DNA of 64,000 nt from Mycobacterium sp. (GCA_032162605.1 JAVROT010000088.1:1144-65143); one strand, 5' to 3'; counted from the stretch's first letter, positions 9,365-41,091 are shown. Numbers and translations are program-made. Notes: generated by a model from the letters alone, not told the origin.

Positions 9365-9400
9365 ATGCCCAAACACACGAGGGAAGCCCAGGCCCGATGA
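9365..9400 (+). CDS. 11-codon upstream ORF (MPKHTREAQAR) overlapping the MFS start in ATGA
   Basis: Its ATG is positionally homologous to the ligase start codon of copy B. Its stop TGA (9398..9400) overlaps the MFS ATG (9397). No SD sequence upstream. Confidence 0.25.
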   Translation: MPKHTREAQAR

Positions 9401-10656: not shown

Positions 10657-10679
10657 CTTTCCACATCTTGGAGGCAATC

Positions 10680-12023: not shown

Positions 12024-12040
12024 GCAAGAGGAGTAGCCCG

Positions 12041-12715
12041 ATGACCCGATTCGTCGACCTGACCCACGGCTTCTACGACGGAATGCCGTCCTACCCCGCC
12101 GACTGGTTTCCGAAGTTCGCCAGCGAGCGCACGATGACCCCGGAGACCGACCCTTACGGCACCAAGCGCACGTTCTCCTATCTGCACGTGTTTCCGCACA
12201 ACGGAACGCACATGGAGTACCGGCTGCATTTCTTCCCCGGGGCGGAGGGGATTGACGAGGTGCCGCTGCACACCCTGATCGGCCGCGCCTGCGTCGCCGA
12301 CCTGTCCGACAAGGGCGAGCTGGAACCGGTCACCGGCGAGGACCTTGAGCGGACGCTGCGCCCGGTGTGGCGGGAGGGTGACCGGCTGCTGGTTCGCACC
12401 GACTACCTGCGGAACAACTGGGGCCGCCCCGACTACTGGGACGTGCCGCCCTACCTGACGCCGTCAGCCGCGGAATGGGCCATCGACAACGGCGCCAGCC
12501 TGTTCGGTCTGGACTGCCTCACCGAGCGGCCCGGCGACGCCGAGTCTCCCGTGCACCACGCGCTGCTGGCGGCCGGCATCCCGCTGCTGGAGTACGTCAC
12601 CAACATGCACGAGCTCACCAGGTCGGTCGTTCAGCTCGTTGCGCTGCCCATGAAGGTGGCCGGCGCCGAGGCGGCTCCCACCAGGGTCATCGCCATGGAG
12701 GACACCGATGACTGA
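12041..12715 (+). CDS. cyclase-family protein (kynurenine formamidase-like metal hydrolase)
   Basis: HNGTHMEYRLH motif (compare HxGTHxDxPxH), plus GLDCLTERPGD and VHHALLAAGIPLLEY. Confidence 0.8.
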   Translation: MTRFVDLTHGFYDGMPSYPADWFPKFASERTMTPETDPYGTKRTFSYLHVFPHNGTHMEYRLHFFPGAEGIDEVPLHTLIGRACVADLSDKGELEPVTGEDLERTLRPVWREGDRLLVRTDYLRNNWGRPDYWDVPPYLTPSAAEWAIDNGASLFGLDCLTERPGDAESPVHHALLAAGIPLLEYVTNMHELTRSVVQLVALPMKVAGAEAAPTRVIAMEDTDD

Positions 12716-13889
12716 ATCGGGCCGGCCCGCGGTTGCGCTCGCTTCCGCGACCGATGACGCCGCGGTGCCCGGTGTGTTGCACCGGCTGCTCGCGCTGCTC
12801 GACGAGCCGCTGGCCGGCCTGCGTCCCGGCGCCGAGGTGCTCATCAAGCCGAACATGTTCCAGACCGCCCCTGGATTTCACGTGAGCCCGGCGCTGCTGG
12901 CCGCCATTGCTCGCGCGGTCGCCGAGCACGGGGCCCGGCCGGTGATAGCGGAGCGTACGCATGCCATCTACGAGATCTTGAATGACCACGAGGCCGCCAA
13001 GTACGCTCGCGTGGTCAGCTTCGATGACCTGCCGTTGCGCATCACCAACATTCCGGGCGCGACGTCGCTTCGGGTGCCGATCGCGGTGCCCGAGATGATC
13101 GAAGACTGCGACTACTTCATCGGGGTGCCGCAGCTGCGCACGCACGCGAGCGTCGTCTACTCCAACGCGATGAAGAACCTGGTCGGGTTGTTGCCCGGCT
13201 ACACGACCCGAATCGTGCACATGGCTGGGGTCGACGAGTCCACCGTGGACCTCAACCTGATGCGCCCGCAGGATCTGGTCATCTGCGACGGAACCACGGT
13301 GATCGAGGGCAACTACCCGATGGACGGGCAAGCGCGCTCGGTGGGCTTCCTGGCGGCCAGCCGAAACGCGGTCGCCCTCGACGTCGCGGTCGGCGTGCTG
13401 GCCGGCTTCGACCCGCGCAGCGTCGCCTATCTGCGCGACGCGCACCAGCGCGGGATGGGCCCACTCGCGCTCGAGGACATCGACCTGCGTGGCACGGCGC
13501 TGACGGAGCTCGCCTTCGACATGGTCAAGGCGCCGGTCGAGATCGTTCCGCCGCGTGCCGGTATCCACGTCTACGCCGAGCATGCCTGCCCGGCGTGCAG
13601 TCGGTTCGTGGCCGCGGCCATGCGTGCCCTCGCCGATGAGCTGTGCGCTTGGGACGGAGAGATGACGATCGTCTCCGGTCCGCAGGTGCAGATGCCGCCG
13701 CTGCGCGGTGCGGTGATCCTCGTCGGCAACTGCCTCTACGAGAGCCGCGATCTCGGCATCTTCATCGAGGGTTGCCCACCACGCGCGATCCAGCTCGCCG
13801 CGTTCCGGTACGCGATGGGCAAACCGGTCGGCGACCATGAGCGCACCCAGTTCCGGGTGCCGCCACGGCTGGCGGGTGTGGCGGGATGA
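12708..13889 (+). CDS. DUF362-family protein with LarA-like motif spacing (candidate NPN-dependent enzyme)
   Basis: VLIKPN..., VPQLRTHASVVYSNAMKNLVGLLPGYTTRIVHMAG and ICDGTTVIEGN. The C-terminal third has CPAC...C...NC...GCPP. 8-nt and 4-nt overlaps with the flanking genes. Confidence 0.75.
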   Translation: MTESGRPAVALASATDDAAVPGVLHRLLALLDEPLAGLRPGAEVLIKPNMFQTAPGFHVSPALLAAIARAVAEHGARPVIAERTHAIYEILNDHEAAKYARVVSFDDLPLRITNIPGATSLRVPIAVPEMIEDCDYFIGVPQLRTHASVVYSNAMKNLVGLLPGYTTRIVHMAGVDESTVDLNLMRPQDLVICDGTTVIEGNYPMDGQARSVGFLAASRNAVALDVAVGVLAGFDPRSVAYLRDAHQRGMGPLALEDIDLRGTALTELAFDMVKAPVEIVPPRAGIHVYAEHACPACSRFVAAAMRALADELCAWDGEMTIVSGPQVQMPPLRGAVILVGNCLYESRDLGIFIEGCPPRAIQLAAFRYAMGKPVGDHERTQFRVPPRLAGVAG

Positions 13890-26810: not shown

Positions 26811-26828
26811 CAGAACGGACGTGTGCAC

Positions 26829-28085
26829 ATGAAACGTATCGGGATTGTGGAGTCGAACCGCTCCGGATCCGGGTTCGACACCTTACGGGCGGCCAGGAAG
26901 CTGGGTTTGCACGTCACCTTCTTCAGCTGCGGGCTGGATCGCTACCACGCGACGCCCGGTGGCACGGAGGTATTGCGCACCTGCGTCGACGAGGTCGTTT
27001 CCTGTCCGACCCACGAGCTGGCGCCGTTGCTGGCGGCGGTGAAGGAGGTCGACGCCACGCATCCGCTCGACGCGTTGCTCTCGGTCGCCGAGTACGAGGT
27101 GGTTCAGACCGCCGAGGTCGCCCGCCAGCTCGGCCTGCCCGGCCCGGATCCGGACGCCGTCCGGATCGCGCGCAACAAGGCCGACCAACGACGGCGCTGG
27201 GCCGAACGCGGCGTGCCCATCCCGGCATTTCGCGCCGTGACCACGGCTGAGCAGGCGGCGCGGGCCGCCGAGGAGATCGGGCTGCCGTGCGTGGTCAAGC
27301 CCGTCGACGAGACCAGCGGGGCGAATGTCGTCCGGTGCACGACCGTGCCCGAGGTGATCGACGCCTTCTCGGCGGTGCGGTCCGAACCGACCAACCGCCG
27401 CGGTCAGCCCCGCCATCCAGAGGTGCTCGTCGAGGAATGCCTGGTCGGCTTCGAGGTCAGCGTGGAGGTTCTGGCCGAGGCCGGATCCGTCCGCGTGCTC
27501 GGGGTGACCGACAAGCTGGTCGGGGGCGGCAACCGGTTCATCGAGCTCGGACACAGCTTCCCGACGGCACTGCCTGCACGGATTCGGGACGAGCTGGAAC
27601 AGGCCGCGGTGGCCGCGACCATGGCGGTGGGCTTCGACCTCGGCATCGCGCACGTCGAGCTCAAGTACACCGCCACGGGTCCCACGCTGATCGAGATCAA
27701 TCCACGGCCGGCCGGTGACCAGATCACCGAGCTGATGGACCGCAGCCTCGGGCTGTCCACCATGGAGCTGTTGATTCGCCAGTACCTTGGCGAGTTCGTC
27801 GGCGCCATCGAAGCGGATCCGGTACGGGGCGCGGCGATCCGGTACCTCACCGCACCTGCCGGTGTCGTGAGCAGCGTGACCGGATTGGAGATCGCCGCTG
27901 CCGTGCCCGGGATCTGCGAGGCCGTGGTGTCCATCGAGCCCGGTGGGCGGATCAACCCGTTGCGGGTGAACGAGGACCGGATCGGCCACGTCCTGGCCAC
28001 CGCCGACGATCCATACCTGGCCGGCCGGATCGCCGAGGCCGCGGCCCAGCAAATCGAGGTGCGAGTCCTAGGAGTAGCGACATGA
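26829..28085 (+). CDS. ATP-grasp domain protein (carboxylate-amine / L-amino-acid ligase type)
   Basis: KADQRRRWAERGVP, GLPCVVKPVDETSGANV, LVEECLVGFEVSVE, AHVELKYT and LIEINPRPAGD. Confidence 0.8.
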   Translation: MKRIGIVESNRSGSGFDTLRAARKLGLHVTFFSCGLDRYHATPGGTEVLRTCVDEVVSCPTHELAPLLAAVKEVDATHPLDALLSVAEYEVVQTAEVARQLGLPGPDPDAVRIARNKADQRRRWAERGVPIPAFRAVTTAEQAARAAEEIGLPCVVKPVDETSGANVVRCTTVPEVIDAFSAVRSEPTNRRGQPRHPEVLVEECLVGFEVSVEVLAEAGSVRVLGVTDKLVGGGNRFIELGHSFPTALPARIRDELEQAAVAATMAVGFDLGIAHVELKYTATGPTLIEINPRPAGDQITELMDRSLGLSTMELLIRQYLGEFVGAIEADPVRGAAIRYLTAPAGVVSSVTGLEIAAAVPGICEAVVSIEPGGRINPLRVNEDRIGHVLATADDPYLAGRIAEAAAQQIEVRVLGVAT

Positions 28086-29314
28086 CGAACTTGGTGATGG
28101 TGATGCCCTACCAGGCATACATACGGAAGGCCCAAGCCGAAGGGTTCCGGATCCACGCGATCTGGGACCCCGCCGAGGCCGAGCGACTGTTCGGTGCGGA
28201 ATCCGCCCAGTACCTCCGGGACGTCGAGGCACTCGCCGACGGCTTCCGGTTGGTGGACTTCACCGATCACGCCGCCTATGCCGACGCGATCCGCGCGGCT
28301 GTGCGAGAGACCGACGCCGACCACGTCTGGCACGTCGGCTGCGAGGAATCGATGATGCTCGCCTACGAGGTAGCCGACGATCTGGGAAGAGCGGTCAACT
28401 CACCGCGGTCGGTCGAGCTGCTCAACGACAAGCTCGCCATGCGCACCCTCCTGCGCGACAAGGGCGTCTCCGCGGTCCGGTTCGCCATCGCGGAGCACTG
28501 GTCCGACGTGGCGGCACTGCTGGCGGACTTCACGCTGCCCGTAGTCGTCAAGCCGACCACGTTGTCCGCCAGCCGGGGGACCTACTTGCTCACCGACCCC
28601 GCCGACTTGCCTGCTTGGGGCGAGTCGCTGACCGCCTACCAATATGACGGGCCGCTGCTCGTCGAGGAGTACCTGCGCGGCCCGGAGTTCAGCGTAGAGA
28701 CGTTGACAGTGCGCGGCGAGCACCACGTCATCGGCGTCACCCGCAAGCTGCTCGGCCCGCTGCCGCACTTCGTGGAGCGGGGGCACCTGTTCGGCGCGGC
28801 GGCCACGGCGGAGACCAGCCGGGTGGCCGCCCTCGCGGTGGAACTGCTCGACGCCGTCGGGTACCAGTGCGGCCCGGCGCACACTGAGATCATCCTCACC
28901 GCGGACGGGCCGCGGATCGTGGAGTCGCAAGCTCGGCTCGGCGGGGACAAGATCCCCGACATCATCCAGATCGCCCGGGGTTTCGACATCAAGCGGGCGA
29001 TGTTCGGCGCCCTCGCCGGCAGGGCGCCCCGGCCGGCGAGGGCGCAGTCCATCGGGCACATCGCCTACCTGAGCTTCCCCAGTGGGGTTCTTCGGTCGGT
29101 GTCCGGCCTCGACGAGGCCCGCGGGCTGGATTTCGTCGCCACCCTGAACTTCCCGTTCGCGGTCGGGGACGTGCTCCCGGAGACGGTGAGCTCGAAGACC
29201 CGGCACGGCTTCGCGATCCTCACCGCGTCCGAGAATGCCGCGCAGGCCTTGGCTCGCGCGGACCGGGTGCGCGAACTGATCAGGGTCGAGGTGTCGGCAC
29301 CCGGTTGCGAATGA
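28082..29314 (+). CDS. ATP-grasp domain protein (carboxylate-amine ligase type), second copy
   Basis: ATGA overlap with the preceding gene. DKLAMRTLLRDKGV, LPVVVKPTTLSASRG, LVEEYLRGPEFSVE, AHTEIILT and IVESQARLGGD. Confidence 0.8.
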   Translation: MTNLVMVMPYQAYIRKAQAEGFRIHAIWDPAEAERLFGAESAQYLRDVEALADGFRLVDFTDHAAYADAIRAAVRETDADHVWHVGCEESMMLAYEVADDLGRAVNSPRSVELLNDKLAMRTLLRDKGVSAVRFAIAEHWSDVAALLADFTLPVVVKPTTLSASRGTYLLTDPADLPAWGESLTAYQYDGPLLVEEYLRGPEFSVETLTVRGEHHVIGVTRKLLGPLPHFVERGHLFGAAATAETSRVAALAVELLDAVGYQCGPAHTEIILTADGPRIVESQARLGGDKIPDIIQIARGFDIKRAMFGALAGRAPRPARAQSIGHIAYLSFPSGVLRSVSGLDEARGLDFVATLNFPFAVGDVLPETVSSKTRHGFAILTASENAAQALARADRVRELIRVEVSAPGCE

Positions 29315-31247
29315 CCCGCTCAAGCGCCGCAATGTCGGATTCGATCTGCCGCGACAGCCAATACACCAGTACGAACCCGGCAATTCCGCCGATACACAGC
29401 ATTCTGATCGCCACGATGATTTCGGCGATCTCGGGGGCGGTCAGGAAGCTCACTGCCACGATGCCGAGCAACGGCACCGAGGCCGCGACTGCCAAATAGC
29501 GTGACAGCCGACGGCGGAGTGCGCGAAGCTGTTCTGCCTCTCGTGGATCGGTCTGTCCGTGTGCCACCAGTTCCGGATAGACGCTGCGCACGATGTAGAA
29601 GGTGAACAGGAAGAACGGGTACGCGATCGCGATTGCGCCACACACCGCAAGCGATCCCACGAAGTGGATTGCCGACGTCCCGGGGATTCCACCCGCGACG
29701 AACTGCAAGGTGATCGCAAACGTCAGCCCGGCGAGCAACCACATCCCGAACACCACGAACACCACCCGATCACTTGCGACGAGACAGTCGTGGCGCGCTC
29801 GGGCCAAGGTCTCTCCGGGCGGTGCAGGCCCACGCCGCAGGCGCCGCGGGACAAGGATCACGTAACGGCACCAGTAGACCAGCACCACGAAGGCAAGCGG
29901 AAAGAAAATAACGTTCAGCAGTGTCATGACCAGGTCGAAGCGGCCCTGGCCCTGCTCGGAGAGCTTGCTGACGATGAGGAGCTGATTGTGGTTGATGTTG
30001 TATGCGGTGGCCAGCAGGTTGGGAATCAGGATGGCCAGCGAACCAATCGGCAGAAAGAACGGCCGCAGCCGCAGCCGCCAACTTCGGGCGGGCGGATCCA
30101 CCAGGTCACGGGCTTGCGGATCAAGGCACAACTGCAGGTGCTCGGCGAGTTCAGCGCCCGATGCCCAGCGCTGATCACGATCGGCGCTCAGTGCCTTCAG
30201 CAGCACTCTGCGTAGCGCGGCAGGGCAGTCCGCCGGTAGCGCGGCGAGTGCCTCCGAGGAAATACCTTGGCTGCGGGTGGCAAGCATCAGCTCTAGCGCG
30301 GTGGTGTCTGAGACCGATCCGCCCGAGCGCGCCCGAGCGGCTTGCGCCTCGGAATCATCGAACGGTTTCAGGCCGGTCAGCAGTTCCCACAGCACGACCG
30401 CCAGCGAGTAGATGTCGCTGCGGGTATCGAGCTTCGCCGCATCTTGCATGTGCTCGGGCCGGCAAGCCACGAGCTGCTCGGGCGACATATAGGACAGTGA
30501 GCCGCCGAAATAGGTGAACGGGCTTGCGCCGGATATGTTGCGGGCGAAGCTGATGTTGAAGTCCGCCAGTTTGGGGGTGCCATCGGGTGCGAGTAGGACG
30601 TTCGCGAGCTTGACGTCGCGGTGCAGGACACCCCGTGAAGTCGCATAGTGCAACGCCTGAGCTAGTCGTTTCCCCAGCCACGCGACCGTCTCGGGCCAGG
30701 ATAGGGTGGCGAGCTCAGCGCGGGTCGATGAATCGGTTGGCCGGATCTCGCCGCGCGACTCCAGTGACTCGTCGACCGCGTCGAGCAACGCCTGACCGGA
30801 GTCGGGTGTTCGCCCCGCTCGGCGTATGGCTTGAACGACGTTGAGCAGCGTTCCGCCTGGCAAATACTGCATGTACAGCAGCCGCCAGTCTCGATCGCGG
30901 ACGATTCGCTGGTCGAAGACCCGGACGATGTAATCGTGATCAAGCTGGGCCAGGGTTTGTGGTTCGTCGCCTCGGTTCGCGGAGATCTTGACTGCCACCA
31001 GACGTTGCAGCGACCGTTGCCGGGCCAGAAAGACTCTTGCGAATACGCCGCTGCCGAGTTCGATGAGCAAATCGAAGTCGTCGAGTCGCTGGCCGACCTC
31101 GATCTCGGTGAGGCGGGTGCATGGGGTGGTTATGACAGACGATGATCCGAGTGTTCCGGTGCCGTTTTCCGTCTCGTCGACGGTGTGGGCCGCCGTTTGA
31201 GTCGCAGTGAGCTCGGCGGGGTGGGTGGCAGTCGGATCTGTCGTCAT
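29280..31247 (-). CDS. Ser/Thr protein kinase with a polytopic (about 6-TM) C-terminal membrane domain
   Basis: GSGVFARVFLA...VAVK, HRDVKLANVLL, DFNISF and SPEQ (Hanks motifs). The C-terminal 270 aa contain about six hydrophobic helices. GAGG lies 7 nt upstream of the ATG at 31247. Confidence 0.85.
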   Translation of the reverse strand: MTTDPTATHPAELTATQTAAHTVDETENGTGTLGSSSVITTPCTRLTEIEVGQRLDDFDLLIELGSGVFARVFLARQRSLQRLVAVKISANRGDEPQTLAQLDHDYIVRVFDQRIVRDRDWRLLYMQYLPGGTLLNVVQAIRRAGRTPDSGQALLDAVDESLESRGEIRPTDSSTRAELATLSWPETVAWLGKRLAQALHYATSRGVLHRDVKLANVLLAPDGTPKLADFNISFARNISGASPFTYFGGSLSYMSPEQLVACRPEHMQDAAKLDTRSDIYSLAVVLWELLTGLKPFDDSEAQAARARSGGSVSDTTALELMLATRSQGISSEALAALPADCPAALRRVLLKALSADRDQRWASGAELAEHLQLCLDPQARDLVDPPARSWRLRLRPFFLPIGSLAILIPNLLATAYNINHNQLLIVSKLSEQGQGRFDLVMTLLNVIFFPLAFVVLVYWCRYVILVPRRLRRGPAPPGETLARARHDCLVASDRVVFVVFGMWLLAGLTFAITLQFVAGGIPGTSAIHFVGSLAVCGAIAIAYPFFLFTFYIVRSVYPELVAHGQTDPREAEQLRALRRRLSRYLAVAASVPLLGIVAVSFLTAPEIAEIIVAIRMLCIGGIAGFVLVYWLSRQIESDIAALERVIRNRVPTPRP

Positions 31248-31354
31248 GGAAACCTCGTTCCAGGTCACCTAGATCGTAGGAGCCAGGGCCGCCCGGCATC
31301 GGGGAAATCGTCGTGATCAGGCGTGGTCCGCTAACTACCCAATAGGCTATCCAC

Positions 31355-31978
31355 ATGCCGTCCCACCTGGAAATCTGGAAACCGTCAGGACGGGAGCTGA
31401 TCACTCTGAGCGGCCAACGGGTGACCATTGGCAAGGCCGCGACCAACCTCGTGTCGCTCAAACACGATTCGACCGTCTCACGCTTGCATGCCGTCTTGGA
31501 CAACCTCGGGTTCGCTTGGTCGGTACGGGATGTGGGCAGCCGCAATGGCACCTATCTCAACGGCGAGAAGATCTCTGCCGAACGGGTCATGCGTTCCGGG
31601 GACGAGTTGCGAGTCGGCAAGTCACGGTTGGTCTTCTGGGAGGTGAAGGAAGGCGACGAAGCCACAGCGGACGCGACGATGTCTGCCGCCCCCACCCAGC
31701 TCCCGCCCCGCCTGACCCGGCGCGAACTCGAGGTCCTGATGGTGTTGTGTCGCCCGCTGGTTTCCGAGGACCCATTTCCCGAGGCGATATCCGTTCGTCA
31801 GATGGCTCAGGAGCTGTTCGTCACCGAGGCAGCCATCAAGCAGCACCTGCAAAACCTGTACGACAAATTCGCGATCCCCACCGAGGGAGAGCGCCGGGTC
31901 CGTCTCGCCAATGAAGCCATCCGGCGTGGGGCTATCACCATCGCCATGCTGCGCGATACCGGTACTCCCGAAGAGTGA
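31355..31978 (+). CDS. FHA-domain / LuxR-type HTH transcriptional regulator
   Basis: The N-terminus has VTIGKA...VSRLHAVL...DVGSRNGTYLNG (FHA). The C-terminus has LTRRELEVL...ELFVTEAAIKQHLQNLYDKF (LuxR/FixJ HTH). Confidence 0.85.
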   Translation: MPSHLEIWKPSGRELITLSGQRVTIGKAATNLVSLKHDSTVSRLHAVLDNLGFAWSVRDVGSRNGTYLNGEKISAERVMRSGDELRVGKSRLVFWEVKEGDEATADATMSAAPTQLPPRLTRRELEVLMVLCRPLVSEDPFPEAISVRQMAQELFVTEAAIKQHLQNLYDKFAIPTEGERRVRLANEAIRRGAITIAMLRDTGTPEE

Positions 31979-32545: not shown

Positions 32546-34195
32546 CTACTTGATTCGAAGTGCCGAGAAGTCCTCCACGAACACCACATGGCTGTAGGCC
32601 GCGTCGAAGTCGATCCGGTCGGAGACGAACGTGGCGTACAGCTCATTCCCGTAGGGCGCCCACACGGCCTGTTCCATGTATGACCTGTCCAGGGCGGCGT
32701 ATTGCTTCTCCACGTCATCGCTCAGCTGGGCTTCCAGCAAACGATCCATGATCTCGTCGAGCTCGGGAAGCGCCGTCTGTGAGTGGTTGCTGCTGTTGGT
32801 GGGCAAGATGCTCCCTCCGTTGAGTAGCGGCCGGAAGAAGTCGTCCGGGTGTGGGAAGTCTTGGAACCAGTTCGCGAAGCCAGTGTCCAGGTCGGGTGTC
32901 GTCTGGTTGCCGATGGTCGTGAAGTAGACGTCGCCTGCGATGACCTTCAGCGTGGCGTTGAAGCCCAACTGCGCGAGCACGTCGTGGTAGTACTCGCCGA
33001 TGTGCCTGCGGTTGGGCTCGTCGTCGGTCCACACCGTGATGTTCATGTCGGCAGGCTTGGCCTCGGCGATCAGCGCCTTGGCCTTGACCATGTCGGGGCC
33101 GGGGTAGAGCTCGTACTCCTCGTACCCGGGCATACCCGGCGGGAGGATCTGCTGGGTCGCGTGCAGTCGGCCGCCGAAGATCCGGTTGAGCGCCTCGGGA
33201 TCGATGGCGTAGTTGATCGCCTGGCGGACCTTGAGGTCGTTGAACGGCGCGGTCTGACCGTTCATCCAGAAGTAGTAGGTGTTGATCGACTCCTCCAGCC
33301 GGAACCGGTTGCCGTACTTGGCCTTTATCTCTGGCAGCCGGTCGGCGTCCGGCGGATCGCTCATGAAGTCGACGCTGTTCTGCATGACCCCGGTCACCTG
33401 AGCGCTGTTGCTCTTGTTCTGCGTCACCGTGATGGTGTCGACCTGGGCATCCACCACATCGGTGGCACCGGCGTCCTTGACTGTCTGGAAGTGCGGGTTG
33501 CGCTTCATCGTAAGATGTTGCGGCGCTTCGACTTCAGTGATCTCGAACGGACCGCTGGCCGGCGGAGGGTTGTTGGTGGCGTCTTCGTTCAGCGGGGTCG
33601 ACGGTGGGACCGGCGCGGCGAATGGCAATGCCAACACGCTGTCGAAGGTTCCATTGGGCTCTTCGAGACGGATCGTGATGGCGCCCGTCACGTCGTCGGC
33701 CGTGATCCCGGTGATCTGATCCTGCTGTCCGTCGGCGAAGGGGACCGCGCCGACGATGCCTTCGAAGAACACCGATCCGCCGGAGTCCGTCTTGAACAGC
33801 CGTTTGATCGCGTAGGTGAAGTCAGAAGCCTTGATCGGGGTGCCATCCGAGTACTTCATGTTCGGGCGCAGGGTGAGCTCGTAGGTCTTGCCGTCGTCCG
33901 ATATCCGGGGCATCCCGTCGGCCAGCCCGGGAACGACTTCGGTCCCCGAATCGCCCTTGGCGTGCTTGTAGGTGAGCAACGGCACGTAAACGTTCCAGAG
34001 CACCTCCCAACCCTGAACCGTGTACGAGAGCTGAGGGTCGACGTGGTCGGGGAACGACGTCATGGTGACGTTGATGTCACCGTGTGCTGGCCCGACGCCC
34101 TCGTTGTTTCTTGAAGGCCCACCGCACGCAACGACGCCGAACGCCATCAACGCGTTGACGCTACCGATCGCTAGGACCGCCCGCAGCTTCTTCAT
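32546..34195 (-). CDS. ABC transporter substrate-binding lipoprotein, family 5 (peptide/nickel type)
   Basis: I chose the start at MKKLRAVLAIGSVNALMAFGVVAC (lipobox). Typical SBP_bac_5 body. No permease or ATPase genes are adjacent. Confidence 0.85.
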   Translation of the reverse strand: MKKLRAVLAIGSVNALMAFGVVACGGPSRNNEGVGPAHGDINVTMTSFPDHVDPQLSYTVQGWEVLWNVYVPLLTYKHAKGDSGTEVVPGLADGMPRISDDGKTYELTLRPNMKYSDGTPIKASDFTYAIKRLFKTDSGGSVFFEGIVGAVPFADGQQDQITGITADDVTGAITIRLEEPNGTFDSVLALPFAAPVPPSTPLNEDATNNPPPASGPFEITEVEAPQHLTMKRNPHFQTVKDAGATDVVDAQVDTITVTQNKSNSAQVTGVMQNSVDFMSDPPDADRLPEIKAKYGNRFRLEESINTYYFWMNGQTAPFNDLKVRQAINYAIDPEALNRIFGGRLHATQQILPPGMPGYEEYELYPGPDMVKAKALIAEAKPADMNITVWTDDEPNRRHIGEYYHDVLAQLGFNATLKVIAGDVYFTTIGNQTTPDLDTGFANWFQDFPHPDDFFRPLLNGGSILPTNSSNHSQTALPELDEIMDRLLEAQLSDDVEKQYAALDRSYMEQAVWAPYGNELYATFVSDRIDFDAAYSHVVFVEDFSALRIK

Positions 34196-34472: not shown

Positions 34473-37400
34473 GTGGGCTCAGGTGGGCGTGATGCGTCGC
34501 TCGATGTCCCGGATGGTCGTCCTGGGCCGGACATTGCCCAGGGCGGAGATGCGTCCGAGGTCTCGCGGCCGAGGCGGTCCTTCCATCTTCCAGAACACGA
34601 GGGCGCCGCCGATTTGCTGGCCTATCCGGCTGATGCCGGCCAGATGCGCCGGCTGACGATCCTCTTCGCCGACCTCGTCGACTCGACCAGATTGTCCACC
34701 CGCGTGGAGCCCGAGATCTATCGGATGCTCGTCGGCAGCTACCGGGACGAAGTGGTCCAAAATGTGAACCGCTATGAGGGCCATATCGGTTCGACCAAGG
34801 GCGACGGTCTGCTCGCAGTGTTCGGCTACCCCACCGCGCACGAGGACGACGTTCGGCGTGCTGTGCTTGCCGGGCTGGCGATCGTTCGAGAAGTGGTGCG
34901 CATCTGCGAGATATCCAAGCGGCAGTGGGGGATTGAGATCGCCGTGCGTGTCGGAGTGCACCGTGGACACGTGTACTTGGACACCGCGCAGGATGACGTG
35001 TACGGGCTGGCGGCCAATCTGGCGGCGCGCGTGTCGGGCTTGGCGCCGCCCAACTCGGTGGTGATCTCCGACGCTGTAGAACCCTTGGTGCGCCGAGACT
35101 TTGATTTGGAGGAACATACGCCGGCCGTGGTGAAGGGAGTCCGGGAGCCCATCGCGCACTACCGGGTTCTCGGCGAGCGGCTGGAACCCGAGAAGGTGCA
35201 GGATCGACCAATGGTGGGCCGGCAACGGCAGCGTGGCCGGTTGCGGGAGGCTTGGGCGCAGGCGGGGGACGGGACTCTGTCGACGCCGGGAATCGCGTTC
35301 GTCGGTGAGCCGGGAATCGGGAAGTCCCGCCTCGCTGGGCTGGCCGTCGCCATGGCGGAGCGTTCGGGGGCAACGGTTCTCGAGATGAACGGTTCGGCGT
35401 TTCACTCGAGTGCAGGCATGCACCCGGTACGCACCCTCCTGGAACGCCGCAGCGGAATCAACCGCTTGACCGATCAGACCGAGCGGTTGCGACTGCTTAC
35501 CGCTGAAGTAGCCCGACGGGGACTGGATCCGTCGGCCGTCGCGGCCCTGGCGCCGGTCGTCGGCATCGCGCCGGAAGCCGGCTACGACCCGCTCGAGGTC
35601 GAGGGGGTGAAGTTGTATCACCTGATCGCCGCGTCCGTTCAGGAGTATCTTCTGGCGAGTCTCGGCGGTGGCCCTGGTCTGGTGGTGGCCGAGGACGTGC
35701 ACTGGTTCGACCCGTCCACGTTGGAGGTTCTCGGGTCGTTGCTCGGCGCTGCCGACGGTCGACTGCTCGTGGTCATGACCGCAAGGCCTGGGGCGGCTCC
35801 GGACGACGGCTGGCCGGTGAAGGTGATCAAACTCAAGGCACTGACGCACAAGCAGACGGATGCCTTGATCGTGTCGTTGAATCCGCTACTGACGGTCGGT
35901 GAGCGAATGGCCGTGCATCATCGCTGCGACGGGGTGCCGTTCTACGTCGAACAGCTGGTGGCCGGGCTGGGTGGGCCGGGAGTTCCCGAGGCGCTCTACG
36001 ATCCGTTGTTCGCCAGGCTGAGGGCGAGCGCCAATGCGGTGCCGGTGGTCGAGGCAGCGGGCATCATCGGCCGCAACGTCGACCGTGTACTGCTAGGGAC
36101 GGTATGCACGCTGAGCGATGCGGAAGTCAACGAGGTCATCGACGAGCTCGAGAGGGCACTGGTCTTCGAGCAGCAGGGCACCGACGGATGGCGGTTTCGA
36201 CACGAGTTGCTGCGCGAGGTAGCGGTGGAGCTGGCTCCCCCGAGCGTGCGCAGGGGACTGCACGCGAGGGTCGCCGATGCCTTGGTCGACACGGGCGGCG
36301 ATCCCGACTGGGGAGTTGTGGCAGGTCACTACGAGCGTGCCGACCGATTCGGCGACGCGGCAAAGGCGTACTGGGAGGCCTCGACGATCGCGCGCCGTCG
36401 TGGCGCCCTTGTCGAGGCGCGTGGCTATCTGACGCGGGCCCTTGCACTGCTCGAACGCGTGGCGCCGGGCACCATGCCCAACCAGACCGAGACGGCGTTC
36501 CGGATGGAGCGCGGCTTGCTCTTTGCCGCCGCCGACGGTGCGTTGAGTGAGGATGCCGCCGCCGACTTCGCACGGAGCGTTGAACTCACCGAGGTCGATC
36601 GGCTGAACGAAGGGGTGCTGGAGACACGGCTCGATCTAGTGGAGTCATTCGTCATGCGGGCGGATCTGCGCGGAGCGTCCCAGCTGCTGGCGACACTGCG
36701 CCAGGACATCGGGATCGGGCGTTCGTGGATGCAGATGATCGTCGACATCTGGTCGGGGGTCGTGGCGTGTCTTCGTGGCACCTTCGACTCGGCGCTGACC
36801 CAACTCACTGCGGCGACCACCAGATTCGCCGCGGCCAGCCCCGACGACGTCGAGGCCTATGCACTCAACGTGTTGATCGTGCAGGCCTACACCCAGCTGG
36901 CATCGGTCTACCTGGTTCGCGGTGACCTCGCGAGTGCGGGAACCGAATTGAGCCGCGCAGAGCAGCTGCTCCAAGGGCTCGGCTACCCAGAGGGCCCATT
37001 CAACATCGCCTACGTGCGATTCGGGCAGATCTGGCTGCTCGTCGAAGCTGGTGACCTCGACCGCGCCGCGGGGGTGGCGGCCGACGTGACGGCACTCGCA
37101 GAGCGACACGGCCTCGATGTACTTCAACTCTTCGGCGCCACCTGGCAGGCAAGCATCCGCGCCCTTGCCGCTGTCACGAACGACACACCGCACCAGCCGA
37201 ATTCGCTGACTGACCCCGTCGCCGCCGTGACCGACCTGGTTGACGCGTTGCGCGCAGTCGAACTCAACGAGGTGGTCATGTACTTCTGCGGCATCGTTGC
37301 CAGGGCCATGACCGCCGCAGGTCAGCCCGAGCAAGCCCGGGCGCGCCTCGACTCTGCGCTCCAGATCGCCGAAGACACCGAATTGTGTTTCTACAAATCC

Positions 37401-37646
37401 GAATTGCTACGGCTGCGCGGTCACACCCAGGCCGACGGGGAAGCCCGCAGCGCCGACTTCGCCGCTGCTCGCGAGCTCGCTCGGGCACAGGGCGCGACCT
37501 TGTTCGAACTGCGCGCAGCGCTCGACGAGTGCGACGCCGGTGCCGCGCACGTCCATGTGCGGGACGTGATCGGTCGCTTCCCGCAGGGAAGCGATTCTCC
37601 GGAATTCGCTCGAGCCCGAGCATTGCTCGACGACTGGCTCGAGTGA
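34473..37646 (+). CDS. class III adenylate/guanylate cyclase domain fused to an AAA/STAND ATPase and a TPR-like C-terminus
   Basis: LTILFADLVDST...GDGLLAVFG...VRVGVHRG...AARV (cyclase domain), then FVGEPGIGKSRL (P-loop) and a long helical-repeat C-terminus. The exact start is uncertain. Confidence 0.85.
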   Translation: MGSGGRDASLDVPDGRPGPDIAQGGDASEVSRPRRSFHLPEHEGAADLLAYPADAGQMRRLTILFADLVDSTRLSTRVEPEIYRMLVGSYRDEVVQNVNRYEGHIGSTKGDGLLAVFGYPTAHEDDVRRAVLAGLAIVREVVRICEISKRQWGIEIAVRVGVHRGHVYLDTAQDDVYGLAANLAARVSGLAPPNSVVISDAVEPLVRRDFDLEEHTPAVVKGVREPIAHYRVLGERLEPEKVQDRPMVGRQRQRGRLREAWAQAGDGTLSTPGIAFVGEPGIGKSRLAGLAVAMAERSGATVLEMNGSAFHSSAGMHPVRTLLERRSGINRLTDQTERLRLLTAEVARRGLDPSAVAALAPVVGIAPEAGYDPLEVEGVKLYHLIAASVQEYLLASLGGGPGLVVAEDVHWFDPSTLEVLGSLLGAADGRLLVVMTARPGAAPDDGWPVKVIKLKALTHKQTDALIVSLNPLLTVGERMAVHHRCDGVPFYVEQLVAGLGGPGVPEALYDPLFARLRASANAVPVVEAAGIIGRNVDRVLLGTVCTLSDAEVNEVIDELERALVFEQQGTDGWRFRHELLREVAVELAPPSVRRGLHARVADALVDTGGDPDWGVVAGHYERADRFGDAAKAYWEASTIARRRGALVEARGYLTRALALLERVAPGTMPNQTETAFRMERGLLFAAADGALSEDAAADFARSVELTEVDRLNEGVLETRLDLVESFVMRADLRGASQLLATLRQDIGIGRSWMQMIVDIWSGVVACLRGTFDSALTQLTAATTRFAAASPDDVEAYALNVLIVQAYTQLASVYLVRGDLASAGTELSRAEQLLQGLGYPEGPFNIAYVRFGQIWLLVEAGDLDRAAGVAADVTALAERHGLDVLQLFGATWQASIRALAAVTNDTPHQPNSLTDPVAAVTDLVDALRAVELNEVVMYFCGIVARAMTAAGQPEQARARLDSALQIAEDTELCFYKSELLRLRGHTQADGEARSADFAAARELARAQGATLFELRAALDECDAGAAHVHVRDVIGRFPQGSDSPEFARARALLDDWLE

Positions 37647-37686
37647 GTTCGCCATTCTTGAACATTCGAGGATTCGAGGAGTCTGC

Positions 37687-37815
37687 ATGCCCGCTGCATA
37701 CCCGAAGAGTTCTATACACGGGGCCATTCCCGGCGTAGCGTACGGCATGTTGTTGATCTTGAATAGTGCTGCAATTGTGGCCGAGCATCGGGGGATGAGA
37801 AATGGACGAAGTTGA
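37687..37815 (+). CDS. candidate small ORF (42 aa, hydrophobic core)
   Basis: AGGAG lies 5 nt upstream of the ATG. Product MPAAYPKSSIHGAIPGVAYGMLLILNSAAIVAEHRGMRNGRS. GC3 is low and it overlaps the next small ORF by 14 nt. It is below the track cutoff. Confidence 0.2.
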   Translation: MPAAYPKSSIHGAIPGVAYGMLLILNSAAIVAEHRGMRNGRS

Positions 37816-38011
37816 TACGACCCAGGTCGTGGGGAATGCTCTTGGGGACGTGGAGGATATCGAGCTTCCCGTCCATACGCCGGCGAAGAATGACACGCCA
37901 ACGGGCGTGCTCTTCGTTCCGGATACGTTCAAACCAGGGGACAGGTTGAACATCCAGGTGGTGAAGGTCGTGGAAGACACGTACAACGACTTGGCCCGAC
38001 GCCGTACCTAG
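37802..38011 (+). CDS. candidate small protein (69 aa; acidic N-terminal half, basic C-terminus)
   Basis: GGGGGA lies upstream of the ATG. Product MDEVDTTQVVGNALGDVEDIELPVHTPAKNDTPTGVLFVPDTFKPGDRLNIQVVKVVEDTYNDLARRRT. Same strand as, and 35 nt before, the SBP-like gene. Confidence 0.4.
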   Translation: MDEVDTTQVVGNALGDVEDIELPVHTPAKNDTPTGVLFVPDTFKPGDRLNIQVVKVVEDTYNDLARRRT

Positions 38012-38046
38012 TAATCGTCGAGAACCGCCGCCTTCGCGGGCCGTCG

Positions 38047-39309
38047 GTGAATAACGAGAACCGCGTCGTATTCGAATTGGATACCGCGCCGGCGACGGTC
38101 GATCCATTGGTGGCAGGCGACTATGTGGAGCGTTGCATGTCGTCGGCGCTCCATTGTCCAGTGCTGCTGCTTTCTTCGGCGAGCGCGGCTCGTGACGAGT
38201 TCACGTTCGTCGTGGCCGAGGACCGTCGGTTCTCGGATGGCTCGAGAGTGCTCGTCGACGACGTTCTCCGCACCCTGGTACGGAGTGCGTCGTCGCCGTT
38301 GTGGGCGCGTTGCATCCGGTACCTCGAGCGGGCCGAGGTTGCGGGCGACCGCCTTCGGCTGACGATGCGGCAACCCGCCGCCTTCTTCCCGGACATGTTG
38401 CAGGCGATGGACTTCGCGCCGACCCATCCCGATGGCGTACTGGGCAACGGCCCGTACCGACTGATGAATGAGTTCAACGCCGATGAGCGCTGTCATCGTC
38501 TGACACCGAACCCGTTCTTTCCCGGTGCATCGAGCAGGCCGGACGTGGTCTTCATCGTCCAGGGAGACGTGGACGGGACCCCCGACCGATTTCTGCGCGG
38601 CGAGGTAGACATCACCTGTAACACCGCCTTTCCGCTCGGTCGACTGGCCGACTGGCAGGACCACCCGGCCTTGCGAACTGCGTCGACGGGGATCTACATG
38701 CAGCTGGAGCCGAATCCGACGGGCGGCGCACTCGCGGATCCCCGTATGCGACAGACACTTCGGGATTGTCTCGACCTCGCCGAGATCGCGGCCAGGTTCG
38801 ATGGTGGGTTTCGGCCTACGACGTACCGCCGCCCAAGGGACCGGAAGTCGCAGTCGCGAAACCGATTTCGCCAACGGGTGCGGATCGCCTATCACGACTT
38901 CCCGCCCAATCGTGAGGTACTGGAGGAGGTGCGCGGTCAGTGGCGGGTGCGCTTGGGAGTCGATACTGAGCTCGTCGAACGCGACTATGCCGATCGGTCC
39001 CGCGCGGGCGTCGACGCGTCATTCGTCCTGGGCTACGCCGCCTTCACACATCCCTATTCCGAGTTCGATCAGTACGCCGGCCCGTTGAGAGATCCGGAGT
39101 TCGATCGACTGTTGCAAGCCTTTGCCGCTGAGGCGCCCGGATCGCGGCATGCACTCGAACATCACATCGACACCGCGGTTCCCGTGATTCGGTTGTTCGA
39201 GGTGATCGGGCACTGGCTGGCGAGTCCGCGAGTCGAGGGCTTCGATTGGCCCACCGATTCGATGTTCGACTTCACCGGACTCCGACTGGTTGATCGAGGA
39301 CAGTCGTGA
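38047..39309 (+). CDS. family-5 solute-binding-protein homologue without signal peptide (cytoplasmic)
   Basis: 420 aa with SBP_bac_5-like segments (GNGPYRL, LTPNPFF, GEVDI and the FDxxxxxxG ends) but no signal sequence or lipobox. GTGA-coupled to the ThiF-like gene. Confidence 0.7.
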   Translation: MNNENRVVFELDTAPATVDPLVAGDYVERCMSSALHCPVLLLSSASAARDEFTFVVAEDRRFSDGSRVLVDDVLRTLVRSASSPLWARCIRYLERAEVAGDRLRLTMRQPAAFFPDMLQAMDFAPTHPDGVLGNGPYRLMNEFNADERCHRLTPNPFFPGASSRPDVVFIVQGDVDGTPDRFLRGEVDITCNTAFPLGRLADWQDHPALRTASTGIYMQLEPNPTGGALADPRMRQTLRDCLDLAEIAARFDGGFRPTTYRRPRDRKSQSRNRFRQRVRIAYHDFPPNREVLEEVRGQWRVRLGVDTELVERDYADRSRAGVDASFVLGYAAFTHPYSEFDQYAGPLRDPEFDRLLQAFAAEAPGSRHALEHHIDTAVPVIRLFEVIGHWLASPRVEGFDWPTDSMFDFTGLRLVDRGQS

Positions 39310-40271
39310 TCCGCCTGTCGCCCGCGATGACCTGGAGCCGCAGGGACGCCGAAGTCTTCGTCCACGGGGAGACTCAGATCCTATTGGTGAGCGATTGTCC
39401 ACCCGACGTCGACGCCATGATGCGGTTGCTCGTGCGCGGTTGCGACTCGACGGCCTTCGCCGGACTGGACATCGAAACATCCTGTGTGACCGGCATCTTG
39501 GAAATTCTTCGTGAGGCCAACTGCCTGATCGACGTCAGCTCCGACCGGTGGGCGGGCACCGCGCTCGAACGCCAGGCGGACTACTTCGCCGCGCTGGGAG
39601 CCGATCCGGACGAGGTTCACGCGAACCTCGGGACGGCGACCGTTGCGCTACTTGGCCTCGGCGGCATCGGTTCGATGACGTTGGCGCATCTCGTGTCCGC
39701 CGGATTGCAGCGGTTCACGCTCGTCGATGGCGACGTCGTACAGATCCACAACCTCAACCGGCAGTTCCTCTACCGGCCATCCGACGTGGGTCGGCGCAAG
39801 GTCGATGCCGTGGCCGACTGGGTGCGTGAGCGACATCCGACGGCCGTGATCCGCTCTGTGCCGCGGATGATCACCGAGCAGTCGGAGTTGACGTCGCTCC
39901 TGGGGGAGCACACCGCATTGCTCGTCCAAGCCGCGGACTCGCCGAGTGACATCGCCTTGCTGGCTGCCCAGGCGTGTCTCGCCACCGGTACTCCGTTGAT
40001 CAGTGCGGACTGCGGGTTACGAACGGCGAGCTGGGGTCCACTGGTAGAAACCGCGGACCTCCAGACCCATACGTCGGCGCTACTCGAACGACGCGGTCGT
40101 GCTCCCGTTCCACCTGCCGCGCAGGCGATGAGCGCGTCATTTGGTCCCACGAATGCGATCGTCGCCTCGTACCTGGCGAAGGAGATTCTGTCGTGGTTCG
40201 CCGGGCTGCCGGTTGCTTCTCGTGGGGTAAAGGTGGTGGTCGACCTCGATCAGTTCCGCAGGCTGCAGTGA
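39306..40271 (+). CDS. ThiF/MoeB (E1-like) adenylyltransferase with an extra ~100-aa N-terminal domain (RRE/peptide-clamp-like)
   Basis: VALLGLGGIGS, LVDGDVVQIHNLNRQFLY and DVGRRKV. The N-terminal 100 aa (RLSPAMTWSRRDAEVFVHGETQILLVSDCPPDVDAMMRLLVRG) lie outside the E1 fold. Confidence 0.8.
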   Translation: MIRLSPAMTWSRRDAEVFVHGETQILLVSDCPPDVDAMMRLLVRGCDSTAFAGLDIETSCVTGILEILREANCLIDVSSDRWAGTALERQADYFAALGADPDEVHANLGTATVALLGLGGIGSMTLAHLVSAGLQRFTLVDGDVVQIHNLNRQFLYRPSDVGRRKVDAVADWVRERHPTAVIRSVPRMITEQSELTSLLGEHTALLVQAADSPSDIALLAAQACLATGTPLISADCGLRTASWGPLVETADLQTHTSALLERRGRAPVPPAAQAMSASFGPTNAIVASYLAKEILSWFAGLPVASRGVKVVVDLDQFRRLQ

Positions 40272-40272: not shown

Positions 40273-41091
40273 TCACTCATCGGTGTCCATGACGCGTTGT
40301 GAGCTCACCGGCCGGGGCGTCGACCTGCGACCGGACCGTCGCCCTGGCAGCGGAATCCGGTTGGCGATGTTGCTCAGCGGATTCACCACCTGGCTCAGGG
40401 TGATGACGGCCTCGTGCAGGGCATCGATCGTTGGTGCCAACGCTTCGAGGCCCGGGGCCAGGCGGTTGAGCGTGTCGGCGACGTCCGCCAGCTTGAGCAG
40501 CGGCCCGTCCTCGGCCGTGATGGTATCGAGCAGGCCGCCCTCGGCAAGAAGGCGGTCGGCAACGCCGTCCTCTCGGAGCACCCGCTCGAACAGGCCGTCA
40601 TTGGCCAGCAGCTGATCGGCGAGACCACCTGGCGCGATCACCCGCGACACGGCACCGTCGTCGGTGGTCAGCCTGTCGATCAGCCCACCCTCGGATGTCA
40701 CCTGATCGATCAGCCCACCGGGAGCCACCGCGCGCGCGACGGGCCCGTTCTCCGTCGTCAACCGGTCGAGCAGCCCACCCTCGGCAGTTAACTGGTCCAC
40801 GATGCCGCCGGGTCTGAGCAGTCGGTTGATCGGGCCATCCGGCGCCAACGCGCGTCCCAGCGGCGCGTCGTCGTCCATCAGGTGCGCCAATCGATTGGCG
40901 CGCTCGACCGCGTCCTCGAGCCCAAGCAGCTGCGCGAACGATGAGCCGCTGTTCAGCGACTTTCCGTCGCTGAGCCCCCGCTGGACGACGCTGATCGTCT
41001 CACCGGCAATGCCGAGGCCCACGTCGGCGACGGCGAGACCGATGCGTACCGGTGCGGTGGCCATGTCGACCAGGGCTTTGCCGAGATTCAT
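40273..41091 (-). CDS. conserved repeat protein (about 12 tandem decapeptide xGG[LIV]xD[RQ]Lxx units), positional counterpart of Rv0756c
   Basis: 272 aa. Repeats include PGGIVDQLTA, EGGLLDRLTT, PGGLIDQVTS, EGGLIDRLTT and PGGLADQLLA. It lies divergently upstream of phoP. Confidence 0.7.
   Translation of the reverse strand: MNLGKALVDMATAPVRIGLAVADVGLGIAGETISVVQRGLSDGKSLNSGSSFAQLLGLEDAVERANRLAHLMDDDAPLGRALAPDGPINRLLRPGGIVDQLTAEGGLLDRLTTENGPVARAVAPGGLIDQVTSEGGLIDRLTTDDGAVSRVIAPGGLADQLLANDGLFERVLREDGVADRLLAEGGLLDTITAEDGPLLKLADVADTLNRLAPGLEALAPTIDALHEAVITLSQVVNPLSNIANRIPLPGRRSGRRSTPRPVSSQRVMDTDE

Follow-up and report, generated by a model that had tools for sequence, protein, structure and literature searches.

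What does a cytoplasmic homologue of a peptide-binding protein do beside an E1-like enzyme and a small open reading frame (ORF)? This question is raised by a lower-GC part of a 64,000-nucleotide stretch of DNA from Mycobacterium sp. (GCA_032162605.1, JAVROT010000088.1:1144-65143; the whole stretch is referred to as the window). A preliminary description of positions 37650-40271, which hold two small ORFs, a family-5 substrate-binding protein (SBP) homologue without a signal peptide and a ThiF-like protein, had proposed a peptide-modification module similar to those producing peptides that are made by ribosomes and modified after translation (RiPPs). That proposal is supported here. The region is likely to be a four-gene RiPP-type biosynthetic cassette, made up of a regulator, a precursor peptide, the SBP5-like protein and an E1-like enzyme fused to a RiPP recognition element (RRE), and, as predicted from its sequence, its very probable function is the chemical modification of a small ribosomal peptide at the last amino acid. 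Three observations had been named in advance as contrary to such a reading (small ORFs not conserved beside homologous gene pairs, an N-terminal enzyme domain unlike an RRE or peptide clamp, and grouping of the ThiF protein with MoeB/MoeZ) and none of the three was made. The extent of the unit needed revision: the core of 69-aa ORF, SBP-like gene and ThiF gene stood, while the start moves from 37650 back through the regulator gene (34473-37646) and the 42-aa ORF is removed.

The MccB-Like Enzyme

The ThiF gene (39306-40271) encodes 321 aa. The ThiF/MoeB-type E1 fold suggested for the C-terminal ~220 aa was recovered by Pfam (ThiF, residues 104-301, E 1.3e-35). An AlphaFold2 model built on 31 homologues (mean predicted local distance difference test, pLDDT, 86.4) placed strands at residues 2-4 (short), 9-13, 16-20 and 25-28 and helices at 35-44, 48-53 and 58-70, so that the modelled N-terminal ~100 aa have the secondary-structure order of an RRE. 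When the model was compared to the PDB with Foldseek, ranks 1-24 were MccB (E down to 2.6e-19; 307-323 of 321 columns) and ranks 25-26 were PaaA (1e-16; 321 and 262 columns), with ThiF and MoeB following from rank 27 on (7e-12 and weaker; ~200-240 columns). Full-length alignment was obtained to MccB and PaaA only, in keeping with the likeness to an RRE or MccB/PaaA peptide clamp that had been suspected for the N-terminus.

Profile searches gave the same picture. The family profile matched the PDB sequences of MccB at 6e-36 (positions 49-321), PaaA at 4.6e-24 (positions 53-209) and MoeB at 8.9e-24, the last over the E1 core only (positions 105-236), and the anticipated alternative of a MoeB/MoeZ-type enzyme was not found. 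NCBIfam scores were 81.2 bits for ThiF (cutoff 159), 65.7 for MoeB (cutoff 266) and 43.3 for MoeZ (cutoff 647). Sequence and model together thus place the protein as MccB-like, not MoeB-like.

The ATP site consists of a Gly-rich loop (G117xGGxG122) and four putative ATP/Mg ligands, D141, R152, K165 and D211, which align to MoeB D62, R73, K86 and D130. Since all of these are invariant in the 31 family members, the enzyme should be catalytically competent. CxxC zinc pairs were found neither in the translation nor in the 31-member alignment. Cys236, located beside the active-site strand, is nearly invariant and is replaced by Val in the distant member P0040. The gene evolves under constraint, with a ratio of nonsynonymous to synonymous substitution (dN/dS; NG86, Thr-type pairs, see below) of 0.14-0.27. 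By its N-terminal fold, its ATP site and a co-located precursor gene the enzyme is a member of the RRE-ThiF class on the criteria tested, with modification of the precursor being predicted.

The Putative Precursor Peptide

Two small ORFs precede the SBP-like gene, and their coordinates (37687-37815 and 37802-38011), translations (42 and 69 aa) and Shine-Dalgarno-like sequences are all as originally reported. The 69-aa ORF carries a coding signature (codon-position GC1/2/3 of 0.64/0.34/0.74) and the 42-aa ORF does not (0.51/0.54/0.56). By tblastn, the latter had no match in any related locus except ~99%-identical contigs, on which gene callers annotate it inconsistently. The 42-aa ORF is probably spurious; its proposed place in the module was not upheld, and it was rejected as a second precursor, having neither homologues in diverged loci nor a coding signature.

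Homologues of the 69-aa protein occupy the same position and orientation in every related locus with upstream DNA present, adjoining the SBP-like/ThiF pair directly or with one radical S-adenosylmethionine (rSAM) gene intervening. The association of a small ORF with such pairs, which had been set as a test, was thereby observed for this ORF. Position, orientation, motif and C-terminus are conserved across at least 14 distinct sequences, and the identical protein was called on 18 metagenome contigs. In an alignment of 11 precursors (A4), V36, F38, R67 and R68 are invariant and the last residue is Cys or Thr. The N-terminal half is variable and acidic or proline-rich; a VLFV motif follows ~30 residues before the end in all 11 sequences, then a strand-like (I/V)xVVxV segment, the invariant Arg-Arg and the last residue. 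Conservation is confined to ~35 C-terminal residues, and no Asp or Glu is invariant in these 11 sequences. In the window protein VLFV is residues 36-39 (nt 37907-37918), and the C-terminal Arg-Arg-Thr (residues 67-69) forms with Arg66 the tail RRRT (nt 37997-38008). Across the family the length varies from 53 to 88 aa.

None of the precursors had a match among Pfam or NCBIfam families, and for the 69-aa protein the ThiS, MoaD and ubiquitin families stayed without a match even when E was allowed to reach 10. Single-sequence searches (word-indexed, and phmmer against 1.84 billion representatives) returned the query itself and one relative only; because the family is too divergent for such searches, precursors were read from the fetched loci. 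One of these, L047, has two tandem precursor-like ORFs (1104-1310 and ~1660-1790) ending in MVRRRT and VVERRT; several precursor copies are typical of RiPP clusters. We regard the 69-aa ORF as a putative precursor peptide gene, with its expression and modification predicted.

The SBP5-Like Partner

Residues 45-258 of the SBP-like protein match Pfam SBP_bac_5 (E 1.8e-13; 50.8 bits, cutoff 32.4; positions 12-243 of 368 in the model). The mature fold's first strand (MNNENRVVFELDTAPATVDPL) forms its N-terminus, and the reading frame offers no start farther upstream; likewise, the consensus of 20 homologues starts at the mature fold. Neither a signal peptide nor a lipobox was found in the protein, and permease or ATPase genes were not adjacent in the window. 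The distinction drawn earlier between this signal-less homologue and a true SBP5 lipoprotein nearby (32546-34195, minus strand) was thus borne out, the lipoprotein having both a signal peptide and a lipobox, MKKLRAVLAIGSVNALMAFGVVAC.

The family profile matched OppA, MppA and NikA in the PDB weakly, from 1.4e-6, and no NCBIfam SBP model matched at E ≤ 0.01. The AlphaFold2 model was of low confidence (pLDDT 60.4) and was used for fold class only; its structural matches were solely cluster-C SBPs such as MppA and OppA (1e-15 to 1e-13), with DppE and NikA also among them. The protein shares with OppA, MppA, DppA and NikA the SBP_bac_5 domain and the signature motifs FSDG and GNGPY. It differs from OppA and DppA in being ~100 aa shorter and in lacking the export signals, and from cluster-C SBPs generally in having no transporter genes beside it and being translationally coupled to a cytoplasmic enzyme.

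The SBP-like gene accompanies the ThiF gene in all of the more than 30 loci and is its neighbor in every locus but one. The GTGA coupling seen at first inspection is a 4-nt overlap at 39306-39309, which recurs in L002. dN/dS of the SBP-like gene was 0.17-0.24 (NG86, Thr-type pairs). By this distribution the protein is a predicted obligate partner of the ThiF protein. Its role would be peptide binding, scaffolding or substrate presentation. A function in immunity, by sequestration, would also be conceivable, but the universal coupling to ThiF favors a biosynthetic role.

The Regulator

The 1057-aa protein encoded upstream contains a class III nucleotide cyclase domain (residues 57-230), an AAA_16 ATPase of the STAND type (247-434) and a MalT-like tetratricopeptide repeat (TPR) region (799-970); a DNA-binding domain was not found. 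It partly matches TIGR03903, a kinase/cyclase fusion of thiazole/oxazole-modified microcin (TOMM) clusters, at model positions 283-1261, with a score below cutoff (247.5 vs. 705.75 bits) and the N-terminal kinase part of the model not covered. In every mycobacterium-like locus the gene directly precedes the precursor, with 56-67% identity and otherwise differing flanks. Because the flank comparison gives a constant unit amid unrelated genes, the regulator is counted as a predicted cassette member. In two Thr-type loci (L005 13638-16805, L034 7703-10870) a paralogue of the cassette regulator, also of the cyclase/AAA type and 28% identical to it, lies downstream of ThiF at a distance of ~1.4 kb.

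Table 1. Positions of the predicted cassette genes and domains, and of the overlapping small ORF, in the window.
Feature	Position	Strand	Description
Regulator	34473..37646	+	1057 aa; class III nucleotide cyclase, AAA_16, MalT-like TPR (Pfam)
42-aa ORF	37687..37815	+	Probably not a gene; not counted in the system
Putative precursor peptide gene	37802..38011	+	69 aa; conserved position, VLFV, RRT end, coding signature
Cytoplasmic family-5 SBP homologue	38047..39309	+	420 aa; Pfam SBP_bac_5
N-terminal RRE-type domain of ThiF protein (modelled)	39306..39620	+	AlphaFold2 model, Foldseek to MccB/PaaA
E1-like (ThiF/MccB-type) adenylyltransferase domain	39615..40271	+	Residues ~104-321; Pfam ThiF

Fuller Cassettes in Related Loci

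Homologues are rare, with ~40 (ThiF) and ~25 (SBP-like) clusters among 5.8 billion proteins. The SBP-like/ThiF pair was present in seven of 185,579 species (one genome each): five uncultured Actinomycetota metagenome-assembled genomes (MAGs), an Actinocrinis MAG and Streptomyces sp. Y7. A further source was JGI metagenomes, with 19 loci, and two homologues are annotated as Mycobacterium sp. In total, 47 loci were collected (L numbers) and their genes mapped by tblastn, with upstream regions read frame by frame for precursors.

Most relatives carry a B12-binding rSAM gene of ~630-680 aa between the precursor and the SBP-like gene, and all mycobacterium-like relatives with this gene also carry a 274-aa class-I SAM methyltransferase gene convergent to ThiF. 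A convergent methyltransferase was not detected in L003/L004/L010, L011 or L036. The best NCBIfam models for the rSAM protein were the RiPP C-methyltransferases ApyD (195 vs. cutoff 750) and TIGR03975 (102 vs. 282). Flank comparison gave regulator, precursor, rSAM, SBP-like, ThiF and methyltransferase genes as the constant unit; as far as gene content can tell, the window holds a reduced form of this larger cassette, without the rSAM and methyltransferase genes.

The terminal residue of the precursor tracks accessory-enzyme content. Cys-ending precursors (RRC) occur with an intact rSAM gene in six lineages (L002/L007, L006/L012-L018/L022, L008, L009, L003/L004/L010 and L011), Thr-ending precursors (RRT) occur with rSAM and methyltransferase absent in seven (window/L031/L039-L046, L033, L001, L047, L005/L034, L035 and L020), and one distant locus, the metagenome contig L036, has a Ser end (HNRS) and an intact rSAM gene. 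dN/dS was 0.16-0.25 for Cys-type pairs with Thr-type pairs in the same range, indicating purifying selection on both.

In L036 (4530-16524) the order is an acidic 43-aa ORF ending in HNRS, SBP5-like, B12-rSAM and ThiF, with identities to the window of 32-37% (ThiF) and 24% (SBP-like). This distant, reordered triad makes the module appear old and more widely spread than the mycobacterium-like clade. Downstream lie genes for a NodU-like carbamoyltransferase, a 671-aa protein, major facilitator superfamily (MFS) and ATP-binding cassette (ABC) proteins and a 2-oxoglutarate-Fe(II) oxygenase. The Actinocrinis MAG locus (L003/L010) is flanked by an ABC-type ATPase, an MFS exporter and a Streptomyces antibiotic regulatory protein (SARP)/NB-ARC/TPR regulator, and the Streptomyces sp. 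Y7 locus (L011; NZ_JBIDDQ010000002.1, 584-13025) by a cytochrome P450, a DUF5825 protein, a second B12-rSAM protein, an MFS exporter and a serine hydrolase. These distant members sit in recognizable biosynthetic clusters. L011 is the only locus found in a cultured isolate and offers a practical strain.

Proposed Modification of the Precursor

What unites the chemistry of ThiF-like enzymes is the nucleotidylation of a carboxylate (PMC12596934). In the known RiPP enzymes of this type the carboxylate is adenylated and an internal nucleophile then attacks, namely the Asn amide with MccB, a backbone amide with EnfB, the Trp indole with IndF and the thiol of a C-terminal Cys with GrcB (PMC12596934, PMC12150305). 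EnfB and IndF activate the C-terminal carboxylate, and GrcB, which acts beside radical-SAM enzymes, adenylates a Glu side chain (PMC12596934, PMC12150305).

In the window, the N-terminal RRE of the enzyme would bind the precursor via the VLFV segment, and the Arg-Arg-Thr tail would be threaded into the ATP site for adenylation of the terminal alpha-carboxylate. We favor this carboxylate as the target because the chemistry is universal among ThiF-like enzymes and the precursor has no other invariant carboxylate; side-chain activation of the GrcB type is less likely, there being no invariant acidic residue. The SBP5-like protein would most probably present the enzyme with a substrate that it binds, either the tail of the peptide or a second one. 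A nucleophile would then displace AMP from the acyl-adenylate. As the leading, speculative candidate we take the side chain of the terminal residue, with the beta-hydroxyl of Thr or, in Cys-type relatives, the beta-thiol attacking; it is favored because no other position varies in step with the accessory enzymes. The result may be a C-terminal lactone or thiolactone under ring strain, or a different product of dehydration. Other possible nucleophiles would be an Arg guanidine, a backbone amide or carbonyl (giving an imide or oxazolone), or an external nucleophile.

The ancestral form probably combined a Cys-ending precursor with the B12-rSAM enzyme and class-I methyltransferase, the window carrying a streamlined version. 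Our working hypothesis is that the rSAM enzyme C-beta-methylates the terminal Cys or Ser and that an encoded Thr makes it dispensable, since the enzyme accompanies Cys and Ser, which have no beta-methyl, and is absent with Thr, which has one. The hypothesis draws on three terminal-residue states with one exception (L037). ApyD, the best-matching relative, C-beta-methylates the penultimate Tyr of its precursor (PMC10635010). The resemblance to the aminopyruvatide and polytheonamide types (ApyD/TIGR03975) is limited, as scores were far below cutoffs and the rSAM gene is absent from the window itself. The multinuclear non-heme iron oxidative enzyme (MNIO) ApyH, the RRE partner ApyI and the P450 ApyO of the aminopyruvatide system (PMC10635010) did not turn up in mycobacterium-like cassettes, and a P450 flanks only the Streptomyces locus L011. 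The most specific form of the proposal is a new RiPP class in which an E1 enzyme and a cytoplasmic SBP homologue make a C-terminal electrophile, for example a threonine beta-lactone or a beta-methyl-cysteine beta-thiolactone, with the B12-rSAM enzyme first adding the beta-methyl in Cys and Ser types; we think this form improbable as it stands.

Fusion of an RRE to ThiF is shared with PaaA of pantocin A synthesis, GrcB (streptococcal thiolactone RiPP), EnfB (enterofaecin) and IndF (indolylamide). PaaA, whose source is Pantoea, ranks second to MccB among both the structural and the profile matches of the ThiF protein and has a precursor unrelated to the 69-aa family; GrcB, EnfB and IndF come from Firmicutes, also with unrelated precursors. 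GrcB differs further in targeting a Glu side chain, for which the 69-aa family has no invariant acidic counterpart. According to reviews, none of the four enzymes works with an SBP-like partner or a B12-rSAM enzyme.

Several points weigh against a RiPP-type cassette or its proposed chemistry. That the 69-aa ORF is expressed at all, that its product is modified and at which site are predictions only. The isolated N-terminal domain of the enzyme gave no PqqD or RRE match in Pfam at E up to 10, so the RRE assignment comes from structure prediction, and the low-confidence model of the SBP-like protein offers no view of its binding cleft. Pfam and NCBIfam assigned no protease or exporter to the window cassette, and the product may never leave the cell, or the 69-aa protein as a whole may be the product. 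A four-membered ring formed from an acyl-adenylate is without precedent among ThiF-like enzymes (PMC12596934). The Thr loci form one clade in both ThiF and SBP trees, and the association of Thr with a missing rSAM gene therefore counts as a single evolutionary event. Finally, the precursor of L037 (6227-6717) ends in VARRC, yet the rSAM gene there is a 94-aa in-frame remnant preserving pieces from the two termini of the L003 enzyme; either a recent deletion or an artefact of assembly would account for this sole exception to the rule of Cys with rSAM.

Alternative Explanations

A Trojan-horse peptidyl-nucleotide like microcin C, in which AMP or another nucleoside monophosphate on the C-terminal residue would mimic, e.g., Thr-AMP, be imported (perhaps by an Opp-type system) and poison an aminoacyl-tRNA synthetase, has a small probability in our estimation. 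By profile and fold, MccB (microcin C7 synthetase of E. coli; PDB 3H5A, 3H9G, 6OM4) is the closest solved relative. It has the same RRE/peptide clamp joined to an E1-like domain, shares motifs beyond the E1 core (AADsP/ADHP, wGPL/FGPL and SFGPTN/TFAPVN) and, like the window enzyme, is presumed to act on the precursor C-terminus; modification would fall on the C-terminal residue, as it does in MccA, and the partner protein is related to oligopeptide-binding proteins. Identity in the fold alignment is, however, only ~20%. The E. coli MccA is a heptapeptide, compared to 53-88 aa here. MccA ends in Asn (PMC12150305), which the phosphoramidate requires, the N-P bond being made via a succinimide (PMC12596934), whereas the precursor ends in Thr in the window and in Cys or Ser in relatives, termini with which this route is not possible. 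The window enzyme also lacks the zinc CxxC pairs, has an obligate SBP5-like partner and, in most relatives, a B12-rSAM companion. No exporter or peptidase match was found among the neighboring genes (Pfam, NCBIfam); none of MccC, MccE and MccF is present among them, these functions appear absent, and an MccD partner is likewise missing.

We give a lower rating to a ubiquitin-like or sulfur-carrier system, in which the 69-aa protein would be a modifier adenylated by the E1 enzyme and then thiocarboxylated or conjugated to proteins. Such a system would explain an E1-type enzyme paired with a small protein of invariant C-terminus, and the nearly invariant Cys236 adjoining the active-site strand would fit it, although this residue is Val in P0040. 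The small protein ends in RRT rather than GG and resembles none of ThiS, MoaD and ubiquitin in the searches above, and its ~35 conserved C-terminal residues were judged too few for a beta-grasp fold; a GG-ending beta-grasp partner might be encoded elsewhere in the genome. The E1 core matches Cap2 E1-E2, BilD, ThiF and MoeB models weakly and generically, with NCBIfam ThiF, MoeB and MoeZ scores far under cutoffs, and the enzyme, which groups with MccB, has a modelled RRE of the RiPP type. Scans of the window revealed no partner of the E2, JAB or rhodanese kind. An identity as Cap2 of the anti-phage cyclic-oligonucleotide-based signaling system (CBASS) or as a Bil system was rejected, PADLOC giving E1-core matches of ≤58 bits and generic cyclase matches with no E2 or JAB. 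The SBP-like protein and the precursor were without PADLOC matches.

More doubtful again, and rejected on dN/dS, is a decaying remnant left by loss of the rSAM and methyltransferase genes. Two enzymes of the fuller cassette are missing, as are exporter and protease genes, but at least three diverged Thr-type lineages (window, L005/L034 and L035; 60-82% protein identity) keep each of the three ORFs intact, the aligned members retain the same invariant residues and the dN/dS of 0.14-0.27 matches that of the full cassette. Frameshifts in SBP-like, rSAM or ThiF genes do occur in L001 (6657-7983), L009 and L038 (ENA, MFD long-read assemblies). Unrelated neighbor genes are fragmented too in L038, and since other genes are fragmented in these assemblies sequencing error is likelier than pseudogenization.

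Scarcely credible is ordinary metabolism, with a transport SBP, a molybdenum cofactor or thiamin enzyme and a chance small ORF, which would fit the source annotations ('peptide/nickel transport system substrate-binding protein' and 'molybdopterin/thiamine biosynthesis adenylyltransferase') but not an SBP-like protein with no signal peptide or nearby permease/ATPase genes, a pair confined to seven of 185,579 species genomes, or an RRE domain, MccB grouping and conserved small ORF.

Base Composition and Neighboring Genes

The drop in base composition noted around 37650-38050 was confirmed by windowed GC, which was 0.557 at 37650-37949 and 0.583 at 37800-38099 compared to 0.664 for the whole window. 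The dip (37650-38100) corresponds to the gap after the regulator gene plus the 69-aa ORF. Third-position GC was 0.743 for the precursor, 0.743 for the SBP-like gene, 0.783 for ThiF and 0.779 for the regulator, against a window mean of 0.82 (sd 0.057, n = 59 ORFs); the weaker GC3 bias claimed for the SBP-like and ThiF genes is therefore right in direction and small in size, the cassette genes lying only ~1-1.4 sd lower. A promoter and terminator scan of the locus was uninformative, and an attenuator hairpin between the precursor and SBP-like genes was discarded, since shuffled sequence folds no worse (z = +0.84).

Pfam and NCBIfam scans of the neighboring genes identified a Ser/Thr kinase, a forkhead-associated (FHA) protein, the lipoprotein SBP5, a histidine triad (HIT) protein, a family 2 glycosyltransferase (GT2) and an OmpR-type response regulator with its histidine kinase (two-component system). 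They revealed no protease, exporter or GG-ending ubiquitin-like protein in the flanks, in agreement with what had been said of the cassette. The flank genes are not conserved along with the cassette in relatives. A 72-77% identical copy of the lipoprotein SBP5, which lies beside the regulator, occurs in L001 (527-2186) only and in no other cassette locus; being common to this one locus, it is probably neighborhood synteny and not part of the system, and it was rejected as a cassette member.

Convergent to ThiF, with stop codons 1 nt apart, lies a 272-aa ORF (40273-41091, minus strand) with a coding GC signature (0.74/0.48/0.82), ~13-aa tandem repeats GGL(I/L)D(R/Q)LT(T/S)E(D/N)G and no Pfam family above threshold. 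It occupies the slot of the methyltransferase in Cys-type cassettes. The ORF was seen only in the near-identical contigs L031, L032 and L039-L044, and was rejected as a cassette member as it is not conserved with the cassette. Two tandem ATP-grasp genes (26823-29314; 32% mutual identity) lie just upstream of the Ser/Thr kinase (29280-31268, minus strand) and the FHA protein (31355-31978), the latter having a weak, below-threshold GerE/LuxR-type match. The second of them (28082-29314; the only one scanned with Pfam) has an L-amino-acid-ligase-type C-terminal domain, LAL_C2, and the pair may be another small peptide-ligase module.

Novelty and Implications

The preliminary description knew of no system pairing such an enzyme with an SBP5 homologue, and the literature and family libraries searched by us contained none. 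Searches on combinations of ThiF, SBP_bac_5, B12-rSAM, RiPP, Mycobacterium and OppA returned no description of this system; neither the two 2025 reviews on RiPP enzymes of the ThiF-like kind nor the paper that mined RRE-ThiF proteins globally mentioned an SBP-like partner, B12-rSAM or actinobacterial example; and the precursor and the SBP-like protein are both without a model in NCBIfam release 20. The cassette is apparently an undescribed and rare actinobacterial gene set, and is a well-supported lead for genome mining with an unusual partner protein. The hosts of the window's version are mycobacterium-like soil actinobacteria, from which, to our knowledge, few RiPPs have been characterized.

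Among the 27,400 candidates of the RRE-ThiF survey most enzymes are uncharacterized, the known chemistries numbering only about five (PMC12150305, PMC12596934). The cassette would add to these a precursor family with an invariant Arg-Arg-(Thr/Cys/Ser) end and a new kind of accessory protein, an intracellular family-5 SBP homologue. Cys-ending precursors with two methyl-transfer enzymes and Thr-ending precursors with none form a natural comparison that yields a testable prediction, and the minimal three-gene version in the window would be unusually simple to reconstitute. If the C-terminal electrophile proved to be true, the system would be the founding example of a RiPP class, and the Thr-type cassette would be nature's shortcut to its product.

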